Source of the DNA: Escherichia coli
GTDB taxonomy: Bacteria > Pseudomonadota > Gammaproteobacteria > Enterobacterales > Enterobacteriaceae
Length of the DNA: 64,000 nucleotides
Direction: 5' to 3' (one strand)
NCBI RefSeq assembly: GCF_029227855.1
Contig: NZ_CP074356.1
The notes beneath the pieces are model-generated. The model made no database searches, was not told where the DNA came from, and saw nothing but the letters and a program-made list of their open reading frames with translations. Positions 60,376-64,000 of this stretch are shown here, piece by piece. The position numbers and the translations under genes were made by a program. Within the stretch, counting starts at the first letter, position 1. Every line of letters begins with the position of its first letter.

Positions 60376-60993
60376 TTAGTACAAAAAGTGTACTTCTGAT
60401 GATCTTTCCCTGTCCTTGGCACCATCATTTTTTGACGCTTCAAAAATACTACTACAAGTGAGTTTAGAAAACTCTTTTCCAGATAATTCTCCAGGTTGTA
60501 ATCCTCCGCCGCCAAAAATCCTACTCCCAGGATTTCCATACCTATTTAGAGCATATGAATAGCAATTATTTACGGCAAGATAATACGCATCTGAATTTAG
60601 TTCTCGATTGAATACTGGAGCAGGTTTATCAATTAAGCCCAGCGGATCAATAGAATAGGTTGGATGTATGGAAGCATATACATACTGATTCCACCCGCCT
60701 TCCAGCCCAATCGGATCCTGAGTGATATACCGCCCCTGCAGCGGGTCATAATAGCGGTGGCGGTTGTAATACAGGCCGGACTCCTCATCATACTGCTGCC
60801 CCGGCAGACGGATAAGCTGCTGCAGGTGCTGCGGGTTCTCTTCAGTCAGCAGGTTGTCCCATTCATCATATTCTGCGCACCATTCTGTTGCCCCGTCAGG
60901 GCTGATAAGCGTCAGCGGCAGGCCGCGATAGTCGCAGTGGTAGAGGTGGATTATTCGCAGTGATCTATATGCCAACGTCATCTTATTTTTCAT
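60376..60993 (-). CDS. Orphan Rhs C-terminal fragment (core-end homology plus distinct toxin tip)
   Basis: First about 100 aa ([82 protein letters not shown]) parallel the end of the main Rhs core at 62.0-62.3 kb; the remaining about 100 aa are unrelated to the main Rhs tip. Confidence 0.75.
60700..60970 (-). repeat. Rhs core 3'-end homology block (copy 1; partner at about 62020-62290)
   Basis: Nucleotide-level near-identity, e.g. gtgatataccgcccctgcagcgggtcataatagcggtggcggttgtaatacaggccggactcctcatcatactgctg at both loci. Confidence 0.8.
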
Positions 60994-61045
60994 CTACTCC
61001 AACGAGTAGACAAGTTTTTTATTAAACCATTTATACCTTTTACGA

Positions 61046-61549
61046 TTAAATTTTCTTATGTAATAGAGGTGAATAATCTTCCCAAAAATCCATACAAGCT
61101 TTACTTGCATAAAAGAATCCAGCGTCTGATTCATAAGACATAAACTGTGCAATAATAGATAGTTGTATATCTGAAAAATTAAAAACAAAATTCAAAAAAT
61201 CATCGTGATCCCGATACTCAGGACATAAATATTGTTGAATAAAATCGGATTCAAAAACCCAAAAATCATTCTTATTAAACAACGAGGCATAAATATACAG
61301 AGGGATGTAATAGCAGAATACTTTCTCAGGGAGGAATGTAATTCCTAACTCTAAAGCATAAGAGTCATCCTTTATTTTAAAATTGTTGGCTATTTCATTC
61401 CATTGTTTCTTTTGGAAAAAATTATATACAATATCCAGTTCCTCCAGCCCTGTAATATCATTTGAAATATGAGGTAATGGCTGGCATGGGAAATGAATCA
61501 TAAGTTCATCATAGACTGCACTCTCGTTAGAGAAAATTATTTTTTTCAT
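61046..61549 (-). CDS. Probable Rhs immunity protein (RhsI) for the main Rhs toxin tip
   Basis: 167 aa AT-rich ORF starting [12 protein letters not shown]; its ATG overlaps the Rhs stop codon (ATGA); location typical of rhsI genes. Confidence 0.65.
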
Positions 61550-64000
61550 TTTATTAAGCCACTGCAATCAGCTGCTGTTTTATATGCTTTATTCTCTTCT
61601 TCCATATGGGCCTTATCTCCACCACCAAAGCACTGATTATTAATCTGCTTTCTGACCGAAGCGCACGCCAAATTTATCTCGTACCGTCTCAATATTTCTT
61701 TTCTCAGCATCTGAGGAGCGCAAGCTCTAGACTGGTTACATAATCTGTTTTTTTCATTTTGTAAGTCACTCAGGTTCTGGGGACTACAGTTACCACCAGG
61801 ATTTACACCTGACTTATGTTCATCTGTTAATTTGTCGGCTTCTGGATTAACTTTACGGCCATATTGATCTCTGCGTTGTTGCCCACTTTGGATAACACCA
61901 CCTGATGAAAACAAACCGCAACTCATCAGTGCTACAACACTAAGAATTAACGGATTTAACCCTTGTGGGTCTATCTCTGAGATCGGATTTAACGGATACT
62001 GATAAAAATTCCATCCCCCCTTCAGTCCAATCGGATCCTGAGTGATATACCGCCCCTTCAGCGGGTCATAATAGCGGTGGCGGTTGTAATACAGGCCGGA
62101 CTCCTCATCATACTGCTGACCCGGCAGGCGGATGAGCTGCTGCAGCTGATGCGGGTTCTCTTCATTCAGCTGGTTACCCCATTCATCGTATTCTGCGTAC
62201 CACGCTGTTGTCCCTTCCGTGCTGACAAGCGCCAGCGGCAGGCCGCGATGGTCGCAGTGGTACAGGTGGATTTTTCGCGCCGGCGTGTACACCGGGTCCA
62301 TCTGGTTTTGCATCTGCTCCACCGTCAGGCCGCACGATGCCAGCCAGCGGCGGCTTTCCTCGCTCACCCGGTCAGTAAGGATTTCACTTTCCAGCCGGTC
62401 GAGCATCTGCACCAGCACCGGCGGGAACACCACTCTGCCACCGTCTTCGCCGCCGGACTGCTGAAGGGCATCCGCCAGGCTGCGGCGCTGCGTTTTCGCC
62501 AGCTCACCGGTGGCGGTTTCAACTCTGATGAGTGGCGTGAAGCTCCCCGGCTGATAAACCGTCTGGATGCGGGTTCTGTCGTTCTGTATTGTGGTCAGCC
62601 GGTCGCCGTCCCAGCCGTACCAGGTCACTTCCGGTTTCCGTGACAGCGACATCCAGCCCGTCAGGTCCCGTTCACGCCGCCATACCCGTTTTGCCACCCT
62701 GCGGCCCAGCGGGTCGTAAAGATAGCGACTTTCGACCAGCGGCTCTGCATATTGTGTCCGCGTGTAGTGCACCAGCCGGTGCCGGCTGTCGTAATGATAC
62801 CGGTGAGTCCGCTCATCATCCGTGCGGATAACCCCTTCCGGGATGAGGTCGGTTTTCTCTGTCAGCCTGCCGTGACGGTCATACCGGTAAAGATAGTGCG
62901 CGTCACGGGCGATACGGTTATCCGGCCACATGCTGAGGGTGCTGTCCGGGTGCAGCTCCGGGTCGGGCAGGCGGTTGCCTGCCGGGTCCGTGGCATACGG
63001 GATGCGGATATCCAGGTTCGCTGCCGTGGTGTGGACGCCGGTCAGCCTGCCGGTGTCGCTGTAGCTGTAACTCCGGGTCTGGCGCGGGCTGCTGATGCGG
63101 ATGAGTTCGCCGTTGTCGTTCCAGGTGTAATCGCGGTCATACTGCAGGCTGTTCAGGTGCTGGCTCTGTAACTGCCCGGCAGGGGTGTAAGCGGTGGTGA
63201 GTTCATAACGGCCGAAGCTGCGCAGCGTTTCCCGGTGCAGGCGGTCGCGGGTGAAATCCACCAGCGGTGTGTCGCCGAGTTTCATGCCTGACAGCCAGCC
63301 GCTGCCGTAGGTCAGCCATTCCACGGCGGGCAGGCTGTCCGGTATACAGCGGTTCGCCAGTCCCTGCGCGTTGTAAGCATGTCTGGTTTCATGCTGCCAG
63401 AGCAGTGCTTCCGTCTGCGGGTGATGCACCGTCTGGCGCTCACCGGTCAGGCGGCCTTTCTCATCATACCCGTAATGCACCGTCACCCGGTGGCCTTCGC
63501 TGAGATAGCTGATTTGTGTCAGCCAGCCGCGTTCGTCGTACCGCCACTGTTCTGCGGTTTCACCATTCACCGTTCGCTGTGTGATGCGGTCTGCTTCGTC
63601 ATAGTGCCAGTGGGTGACCAGCCCCTCATCCTCGCTGCGGATAAGTTTGCCGGTCAGGTCGTGGTGATAACGCTGTGTGCGGCCGTCAAAGCCGGTTTCC
63701 TGTATCAGCCGGTCGAGTACATCGTAACGGAAGGTGGTGTGGCTGCCGTTTTCACTGGTCAGGCGGATGACCCGTCCGGCAGCATCGTATTCCATACTGC
63801 GCGTCAGACCACCCTGCGTGGTACGGATGGCCTTTCCCCACGTATCGTACTGTGTCCCGTTTCTGCTGCCGTCCGGGGCAATGACGGCGGTCAGGTCACC
63901 GGCGGCGTTGTATTCATACCGCGTTTCATGGCCCTGCATGTCTTTCACCGCAATTAACTGTCCACGGCTGTCGTATGCGCGGTACTGACTCAGGCCTTCC
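61546..64000 (-). CDS. rhsC: Rhs protein, C-terminal part (YD-repeat core plus polymorphic toxin tip); 5' end beyond the window
   Basis: YD-repeat-rich translation (…RYDAAGRV…[10 protein letters not shown]…), core-terminating DPxGL motif, then a distinct C-terminal domain of about 140 aa; symbol by synteny with ybgA-phrB only. Confidence 0.8.

Follow-up and report, generated by a model that had tools for sequence, protein, structure and literature searches.

Organization of the rhsC locus and its module boundary

The window, by which we mean the whole 64,000-nucleotide stretch of Escherichia coli DNA analysed herein, ends within an rhs gene of the rhsC locus, and this gene is directly followed by a small AT-rich gene on the same strand. 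The features of the region are as follows:

61957..64000, minus strand: C-terminal portion of the YD-repeat (Rhs) shell protein encoded at the rhsC locus (Pfam RHS_repeat and RHS)
61957..61971, minus strand: DPQGL motif, the end of the conserved Rhs core (translation)
61876..61956, minus strand: tip residues 1-27, a hydrophobic linker without charged residues, as long as a transmembrane helix (hydropathy)
61798..61875, minus strand: pre-toxin stretch of conserved sequence, tip residues 28-53, made up of a predicted hairpin and a helix at residues 38-49 (conservation, model)
61549..61797, minus strand: Ntox16 toxin core, tip residues 54-136, with three predicted helices (PF15523 match, conservation, AlphaFold2)
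61651-61653, 61615-61617 and 61606-61608, minus strand: R102, D114 and H117, respectively, of the candidate active site (conservation)
61546..61549, minus strand: ATGA overlap, in which the immunity start codon (61547-61549) shares its TG with the Rhs stop codon TGA (61546-61548) (sequence)
61046..61549, minus strand: putative immunity gene for a 167-aa protein, probably a divergent DUF6714 member (PF20461 score, homologues, gene order)

The Rhs reading frame, which stops at the TGA codon on the minus strand, is still open at the window end (position 64000), and strain 7/2 carries the identical gene at full length, the 1379-aa product of which opens with MSGKPAARQGD plus DUF6531 and continues with RHS repeats, the RHS domain and Ntox16. 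The core encoded in the window matched Pfam RHS_repeat (1.4e-34) and the RHS core domain (3.4e-15). YD repeats, an RHS core domain that ends in PxxxxDPxGL (DPQGL in this protein) and a variable tip behind it, the features by which polymorphic Rhs toxins are recognized, were thus all found. The layout given in the original prediction, namely the core end at DPQGL, the tip, the AT-rich 167-aa reading frame and the ATGA overlap, was reproduced on the minus strand, and the peptide quoted for the tip was located exactly; the tip itself is present but comprises 136 aa (61549-61956, directly after DPQGL) instead of the about 140 aa proposed.

Comparison with 5426 complete E. coli genomes revealed that the similarity among rhs genes ends inside the DPQGL codons in 3884 of them (query 531-544, window 61957-61970), a recurrence that argues against a chance feature. 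By this sequence comparison, DPQGL is the recombination boundary, with the variable module starting directly after it, and the motif is also the expected autoproteolysis site. The tip together with the downstream reading frame was present in only 243 of the same genomes, always with at least 99% identity, and the GC content falls from 0.606 in the Rhs core to 0.407 in the tip and 0.304 in the downstream reading frame. A scan of 60900-62100 detected no sigma-70-like promoter, and the only terminator-like hairpin within that range lay on the wrong strand. A tblastn search of plasmids returned only three weak, unannotated matches, and none of the PADLOC defence models matched.

Family assignment of the tip and its downstream partner

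The tip matched the Pfam family PF15523 (Ntox16) with 49.6 bits (E 4.8e-13, model positions 2-84 of 85) against a curated gathering cut-off of 25 bits, and the match persisted when the search was made within the 800-aa reading frame (45.1 bits) or the full 1379-aa protein (44.1 bits). The domain ends three residues before the stop codon, and such C-terminal placing is general, as 133 of 153 homologues end no more than 15 residues past it. All of the aligned homologues (67/67) likewise matched Ntox16, and a Rahnella homologue, 63% identical, already bears the name "Novel toxin 16 domain-containing protein" in UniRef. Ntox16 was described as alpha-helical with a conserved R and a [DNE]xxH motif (Zhang et al., 2012, PMC3482391), and the tip shares the helical nature, both conserved elements (D114-K-A-H117 being its [DNE]xxH motif) and the C-terminal place behind an Rhs core, with no feature setting it apart. 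The carriers of the family (Rhs, eCIS/PVC metallopeptidase and Sec signal) are shared as well. Judged by its sequence, the tip belongs to Ntox16.

For the downstream protein, the match to PF20461 (DUF6714) reached 24.4 bits (E 3.3e-5), 2.6 bits under the curated cut-off of 27 bits. Among its close homologues, 20 of 22 matched the same family at E < 0.01 (best 2.2e-7), and five with 58-65% identity carry a precomputed PF20461 match; a second protein search with the alignment of the immunity homologues reached no further than the first. The proteins of DUF6714 and the one encoded here have the same length, an all-helical character, the motifs F-x-x-K-x-W, Y-Y-x-P and Q-L-x-x-I-A-x-F, and an identical place in the gene order, immediately behind Ntox16, the sub-threshold score being what distinguishes the latter. 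The protein thus probably represents a divergent enterobacterial branch of DUF6714. An upstream TTG was considered as its start codon and rejected, as the homologues start at the same MKK as the ATG.

Neither protein has an NCBIfam model, and the downstream protein is named "hypothetical" in RefSeq. In the literature searched for Ntox16, PF15523, DUF6714 and PF20461, nothing turned up apart from the 2012 catalogue and a preprint without relation to the subject; no experimental report on any Ntox16 member and no published function of DUF6714 were found. The original prediction had described both families as unrecognised and had named a match of the tip to a known toxin family as the observation that would overturn this. 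The PF15523 match, together with the published signature, overturns that description for the tip, and the DUF6714 relationship speaks against it for the downstream protein. Its companion statement, that the tip can be assigned to no nuclease or deaminase family, still applies, as Ntox16 has no known activity or solved structure.

The gene order around Ntox16 in other bacteria linked the two families. The next gene encodes a clear DUF6714 protein in eight of 12 non-enterobacterial Ntox16 loci and a weakly related protein in two more; the genes directly after Ntox16 scored 45.8, 66.4, 40.5, 37.6 and 62 bits at loci L006, L007, L008, L009 and L012, respectively, and DUF6714 is also next at L015, L016 and a locus in which Ntox16 is joined to eCIS_core. 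The pairing thus holds behind three kinds of carrier (Rhs, eCIS-core and signal-peptide). The product of the neighbouring gene in Neisseria was related to the immunity family with 83% probability in a profile comparison, and Lelliottia and Enterobacter quasimori each probably have the toxin and immunity homologues on the same contig, as the contigs bearing the two are equal in length. From this gene order we infer that DUF6714 is an immunity family, and Ntox16 and DUF6714 very likely constitute a toxin-immunity pair. The predicted succession of a polymorphic Rhs tip and its cognate immunity gene therefore stands, given the boundary after DPQGL and the recurrence of the family pair in distant bacteria.

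Rhs toxin/immunity cassettes are textbook matter, and the tip already has a Pfam name; what is new is the assignment of DUF6714 to Ntox16, for which the founding catalogue listed no immunity family ("-"; PMC3482391). Because of this blank entry, the pairing appears not to have been reported before, and it provides DUF6714 with a probable function.

Predicted structures and conserved residues

AlphaFold2 modelled the tip as four helices with a pLDDT of 96-99 for the Ntox16 core. The linker that opens it has a Kyte-Doolittle 19-residue mean of 1.98 and was modelled with low confidence (pLDDT 53-59); its sequence varies among homologues while its hydrophobicity is kept. In the pre-toxin stretch (pLDDT 96-97), D30, Y32, G33, P38, E39 and A40 are invariant among close homologues, and a D-x-x-G-x-x-V-x-P-x-A-like motif was present in 28 of 108 family members. 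When the two family profiles were run against the sequences of every PDB chain, nothing matched, although E values up to 10 were admitted, and the tip model showed no solved structural relative and no likeness to a known catalytic fold. Ntox16 is thus a confidently modelled, cysteine-rich helical domain without a solved relative, which is a second new point and makes it a reasonable target in the search for a new toxic mechanism. As the cassette occurs in about 4.5% of the complete genomes of E. coli, experiments should be easy.

Across 138 sequences, the position of R102 is always R (138/138), that of H117 is H in 137, and position 114 holds D (117 sequences), N (20) or E (one). Six Cys residues (C57, C73, C79, C98, C109 and C131), which are placed on separate helices, are invariant or nearly so in the same set, and an extra Cys pair is present with both members in 38 sequences, with one in nine and with neither in 91 (Fisher p = 4e-24). 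The invariant Cys residues and the co-gained pair point to disulfides. The copy in the window retains all residues that are invariant in the family.

Disulfides suit an oxidizing compartment better than the cytoplasm, and Sec signal peptides were found in 19 of 147 family representatives; both observations sit uneasily with a cytoplasmic action. A literature search for cysteine-rich or disulfide-containing Rhs effectors retrieved nothing relevant.

The immunity protein was modelled with a pLDDT of 84.7, and its fold matched helical-repeat proteins; it is predicted to be an acidic, all-helical, alpha-solenoid-like protein. Its pI of 4.5 (4.1-5.3 among the immunity proteins overall) compares with 8.9 for the toxin (family median 8.4). 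The hydropathy maximum is 1.16, with no hydrophobic segment, and neither a signal peptide nor a lipobox nor a membrane helix was found in this protein or in five distant DUF6714 proteins.

Two known toxin groups resemble the tip in being small and all-helical, namely HEPN ribonucleases and the Ntox15/Tde DNases, whose catalysis is ascribed to a His and an Arg or Asp located near a helix start. Membership in either was rejected: the Rx4-6H motif of HEPN ribonucleases is absent, R102 and H117 being 15 residues apart with no R 5-7 residues before H117, and, with E values up to 5 allowed, none of 67 members matched Ntox15, the motif being D/N-x-x-H and not HxxD.

Proposed action of the cassette and alternative readings

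The characterized Rhs cassettes, such as those of the Dickeya dadantii nucleases RhsA and RhsB, Salmonella Rhs and the Serratia Rhs NADases, have the same YD-repeat shell, DPxGL boundary and variable AT-rich tip, and likewise a small immunity gene directly adjacent with orphan fragments downstream. Whereas their tips have known folds and activities (HNH or other nucleases, ADP-ribosyltransferases and NADases), the Ntox16 tip has neither. We regard it as probable that the locus carries an exchangeable toxin/immunity cassette of the rhsC-locus Rhs protein. By analogy with established Rhs proteins, the YD-repeat shell would enclose the tip, the core would cut itself at DPQGL, a contractile type VI secretion system would carry the assembly into neighbouring cells in a PAAR/VgrG-dependent manner, and the immunity protein would bind the toxin one-to-one and so protect sibling cells. 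The toxin would act in the target cytoplasm, a location somewhat favoured here since the immunity protein lacks a signal peptide, and the uncharged 23-residue segment that opens the tip may aid the crossing of, or docking on, the inner membrane. As the most speculative step, R102 and H117, with D/N114, N106, Q66 and R77, would form an active site at the last inter-helix turn and would bind and cleave a phosphodiester substrate, e.g., RNA or DNA. Nucleic-acid cleavage is a tentative best guess, made because of the likeness to HEPN ribonucleases and Ntox15/Tde DNases.

A bolder joint reading, which we hold to be rather unlikely as a whole, is that Ntox16 represents an enzyme fold not seen before, in which ~85 residues form a cysteine-stapled bundle with an R...GG(D/N)xxH site and a novel toxin chemistry, that DUF6714 is its dedicated helical-repeat inhibitor, and that the hydrophobic and DxxGxxVxPxA stretch is a membrane-crossing device; if so, the E. 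coli cassette would be a handy genetic model for all three.

Action in the envelope is the alternative that fares best, and even so it is decidedly unlikely. In this reading, the hydrophobic N-terminal segment would anchor a disulfide-stapled toxin that is oxidized by DsbA of the target; acting on the inner membrane or within the periplasm, it would attack an envelope component, e.g., lipid, a cell-wall precursor or the integrity of the membrane. The six invariant Cys residues on separate helices form a typical inter-helix disulfide pattern, the extra pair co-occurs strongly, many relatives are exported via the Sec pathway, and a segment of transmembrane length opens the tip. However, toxins that act in the envelope are normally countered by immunity proteins located in the periplasm or bound to the membrane, whereas the one encoded here, like distant members of DUF6714, lacks a signal peptide, lipobox or membrane helix; moreover, the toxin core has a polar and mildly basic character, and the co-occurring Cys pair may reflect one clade and not repeated events.

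There is a slim chance that the tip is not an enzyme and poisons the cell by binding tightly to some essential protein or nucleic acid of the cytoplasm; R102 and H117 would then belong to a binding surface or to a metal-cysteine structural site. The very small core (~83 aa), the lack of a familiar catalytic fold and the restriction of strictly invariant polar residues to one R and one H, with no invariant acidic residue (D114 is N in 20/138), are in line with this idea. On the other hand, polymorphic toxins, which are delivered a few molecules at once, are nearly always enzymes, and the invariant GG-D/N-x-x-H turn next to an invariant R resembles an active site.

It is very improbable that the cassette has lost its function, as many E. 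coli Rhs elements have, and survives as a relic with a downstream reading frame that no longer protects. A neighbouring orphan rhs fragment has been truncated by an insertion sequence, and the classic E. coli rhsA-D loci are not known to adjoin type VI genes, both of which fit a relic; yet the family-invariant residues are all intact, both reading frames are of full length, and 243 genomes carry the module with 99-100% conservation. Finally, the notion that the tip and its partner both belong to families nobody has recognised, to which the missing NCBIfam models and the "hypothetical" RefSeq label might lead, deserves next to no credence, as it is refuted for the toxin by the Ntox16 score well above the cut-off and countered by the overlap of the immunity family with DUF6714 and by the UniRef name of the Rahnella homologue.

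Layout of the rhsC locus and boundary of the cassette

The window covers the E. coli chromosome surrounding the rhsC locus, and an identical, annotated stretch is present in strain 7/2 (NZ_CP023820.1), where the genes are ordered as the kdp operon, ybfA, an 'RHS element core protein' (1379 aa), a 'hypothetical protein' (167 aa), a partial RHS fragment, an ISAs1/ybfD pseudogene, ybgA, phrB, dtpD, ybgI and pxpBCA. In the window, the minus strand encodes the genes of the locus, with the Rhs gene passing the window end at 64000.

Features of the Rhs cassette and the adjacent fragment
61957-61971, minus strand, DPQGL codons (from translation)
61549-61956, minus strand, tip of 136 residues (from translation)
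61546-61548, minus strand, Rhs stop codon TGA
61046-61549, minus strand, downstream ORF of 167 aa (start ATG 61547-61549, end 61046)
60376-60993, minus strand, orphan rhs fragment, immediately following the immunity gene

The peptide quoted in the original prediction as following DPQGL was found exactly in the translation, the tip measuring 136 residues instead of the proposed 140 or so. The 167-aa ORF was likewise seen to start, as described, on an ATGA sharing three bases with the Rhs stop, and its reported AT-richness was borne out by GC contents of 0.304 for the ORF, 0.407 for the tip and 0.606 for the Rhs core. Since 20 of 21 homologues of the immunity protein start at the same MKK, the ATG was taken as the start rather than an alternative upstream TTG present in the ORF list.

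When a query across the core/tip junction was compared with 5426 complete E. coli genomes, it matched rhs genes in 3884 genomes, but these matches ended by query position 531-544, corresponding to 61957-61970 in the window, i.e., the DPQGL codons. The match extended through the tip and the ORF in only 243 of the 5426 genomes, in which the module was always chromosomal and at least 99% identical. The exchange boundary at DPQGL is biologically real.

The orphan rhs fragment repeats the final ~120 residues of the Rhs core and ends in DPLGL, followed by a tip unlike the main one, for which no Pfam match other than the RHS core domain was obtained. Because the DNA turns at ~60418 into sequence matching the terminal part of ISAs1/H-repeat elements, which >5000 E. 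coli genomes contain, this second toxin is broken off after ~72 residues of its tip, and it lacks an immunity gene. Sequence specific to the orphan was found in 242 genomes, which are probably those that carry the main cassette. The 52 bp separating the immunity stop from the fragment contain a 7-bp hairpin with a T-run after it (plus strand, 60993-61010, opposite in orientation to the genes); one terminator-like site against 0.8 expected from shuffled sequence is about chance level.

The tip as a member of Ntox16

The tip had been considered to belong to an unrecognised family, which proved wrong for the toxin because its score against Pfam PF15523 (Ntox16, 'Novel toxin 16') was 49.6 bits (E 4.8e-13; positions 2-84 of the 85 in the model), the curated cut-off being 25 bits. 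All three of the defining features examined for this family, which originates in a 2012 catalogue of polymorphic toxins (PMC3482391), were found in the tip. The signature published for Ntox16 is an alpha-helical domain with a conserved R and a [DNE]xxH motif, to which R102 and D114-K-A-H117 of the tip correspond. Furthermore, a Rahnella homologue 63% identical to the tip is named 'Novel toxin 16 domain-containing protein' in UniRef. The window thus holds a typical Rhs cassette with an Ntox16 tip, which in itself is unsurprising to a specialist.

When 1.84 billion representative proteins were searched with a profile, 296 relatives were retrieved at E ≤ 0.001. In 133 of 153 relatives, no more than 15 residues separated the end of the domain from the C-terminus, and Ntox16 was matched by all 67 aligned members, among which no second family recurred. 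RHS repeats were found in 17 of the 65 long relatives and an eCIS core domain in four, and a simple hydropathy test indicated an N-terminal Sec-type signal peptide in 19 of 147 representatives. Ntox16 Rhs genes also occur in arrays at two of the surveyed loci: in L008 (1-2954) a second Rhs protein, weakly matching the AHH nuclease family and having its own small downstream gene, lies just upstream, and in L016 (355-1793) an Rhs fragment and a small ORF lie ahead of the Ntox16 gene. Stacking of this kind, seen at both loci, is typical of toxin cassettes.

Across 138 aligned sequences, C57, C79, C98 and R102 were invariant, C73, C109, C131 and H117 were kept in 137, G112 in 136 and G113 in 133, and position 114 was D in 117, N in 20 and E in one; Q66, R77, N95 and N106 were also well conserved. 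AlphaFold2 (67 sequences) modelled residues 28-136 with pLDDT 96-99 and predicted helices at 38-49, 59-73, 85-109 and 115-135, so that the GG-D-x-x-H turn would connect the last two. No structural relative was detected by Foldseek against the PDB (best E 0.67, TM-scores up to 0.37), and nothing was matched when all PDB sequences were searched with the profile of the tip family. An Ntox16 fold with no solved relative is one of two points that go beyond the databases.

Residues 1-27 (61876-61956), modelled with low confidence, carry no charge and reach a 19-residue hydropathy of 1.98, forming a transmembrane-length segment between the predicted DPQGL cleavage site and the toxin core whose sequence varies among close homologues while its hydrophobicity is kept. 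By raw count, a hydrophobic 15-mer lies at most 90 residues ahead of the core in 49 of 108 Ntox16 members (~45%), and about a quarter (28/108) have a D-x-x-G-x-x-V-x-P-x-A-like motif placed between the hydrophobic stretch and the core, matched by an 11-residue stretch in the window's tip.

The DUF6714 pairing

The other point beyond the databases is the pairing of Ntox16 with DUF6714. The immunity protein itself scored 24.4 bits (E 3.3e-5) against Pfam PF20461 (DUF6714), slightly below the cut-off of 27 bits; among 22 close homologues from Citrobacter, Enterobacter, Salmonella, Lelliottia and other genera, 20 matched DUF6714 at E < 0.01, and for five of the close homologues a PF20461 hit is already precomputed. 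At the level of the family, there is good evidence that the immunity protein is a divergent DUF6714 member.

Gene order provided the decisive evidence for the predicted immunity family. As summarized below, the survey covered non-enterobacterial Ntox16 loci having a complete downstream gene.

Gene following Ntox16 at the surveyed loci
Clearly DUF6714 (8 loci): L006 (Hyphomicrobiales, 45.8 bits), L007 (66.4), L008 (40.5), L009 (37.6), L012 (62 bits, 331-aa tandem form), L015, L016, and an eCIS_core-Ntox16 locus
Weakly related to DUF6714 (2 loci): L011 (14.3 bits), L002 (Neisseria, 83% probability by profile comparison)
No convincing relation to DUF6714 (2 groups): Cardiobacterium (L004), L010

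The pairing is kept behind Rhs, eCIS and signal-peptide carriers, as expected of a cognate immunity family. At the level of sequence, the Ntox16 tip and the DUF6714 gene were thus shown to form a conserved pair, and its recurrence outside enterobacteria upheld the assignment of the ORF as a cognate immunity gene. In Lelliottia wanjuensis, and likewise in Enterobacter quasimori, the homologues of toxin and immunity protein were found on contigs of equal length and probably share one contig. No mention of DUF6714 was found in the literature searched.

At L012 (3582-4577; also L013), the 331-aa product encoded after a signal-peptide Ntox16 protein contains two DUF6714 stretches and, judged by these matches, is a tandem double immunity protein. 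The immunity sequence (167 aa) was clustered with partial Rhs tip proteins (representative P0001) in a protein collection built at 90% identity, and this grouping could mislead automated annotation.

The AlphaFold2 model of the immunity protein was helical throughout (mean pLDDT 84.7, pTM 0.84). No N-terminal signal peptide was present in it or in five distant DUF6714 proteins, and its maximum 19-residue hydropathy was 1.16. With a calculated pI of 4.5 (4.1-5.3 in relatives) and net charge of -13, these properties showed the predicted protein to be soluble and acidic, the pI of the toxin core being 8.8-9.0 (Ntox16 family median 8.4).

Proposed action of the toxin

On the established model of Rhs action, the shell would encapsulate the tip, the core would cleave itself at DPxGL and a type VI secretion system would deliver the assembly; a full-length copy of the Rhs protein carries DUF6531 and the N-terminus MSGKPAARQGD. 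The hydrophobic leader may aid passage of the tip across the inner membrane. Because of the location of the immunity protein, the target is probably cytoplasmic.

At a glycine turn, the conserved residues are a single invariant Arg and a single invariant His, backed by Asp/Asn, Asn, Gln and another Arg; no acidic residue is invariant. Phosphodiester binding and cleavage fits best with these residues, a basic toxin and an acidic inhibitor, and we tentatively consider the toxin a candidate nuclease acting on RNA or DNA.

The main alternative, a disulfide-dependent toxin acting on the envelope, draws on the cysteines and the hydrophobic segment. The six invariant cysteines occur singly, scattered across helices and loops, which is the pattern of inter-helix disulfides; a metal-cysteine site is also possible. 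In line with disulfides, extra cysteines occur between C79 and C98, at the start of the third helix (44 members), and in the C-terminal tail (41 members). Both were present in 38 members (about 30% of Ntox16), only one in 6 and 3, and neither in 91, a co-occurrence (Fisher p = 4e-24) that may reflect a single gain since the test ignores shared ancestry. This pair, spanning Rhs-like, Sec-signal and other architectures, looks like a putative fourth disulfide, which is odd for a toxin with a cytoplasmic immunity protein. That immunity protein contradicts an envelope target, which we regard as unlikely. That the tip is a non-enzymatic binder appears more doubtful still, and that the cassette is a dead relic highly improbable.

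As for the possible nuclease, a HEPN RNase was rejected because the Rx4-6H motif is absent, and an Ntox15/Tde DNase because no profile match was obtained among the 67 members and the motif is reversed; as small helical nucleases, both serve as analogies only.
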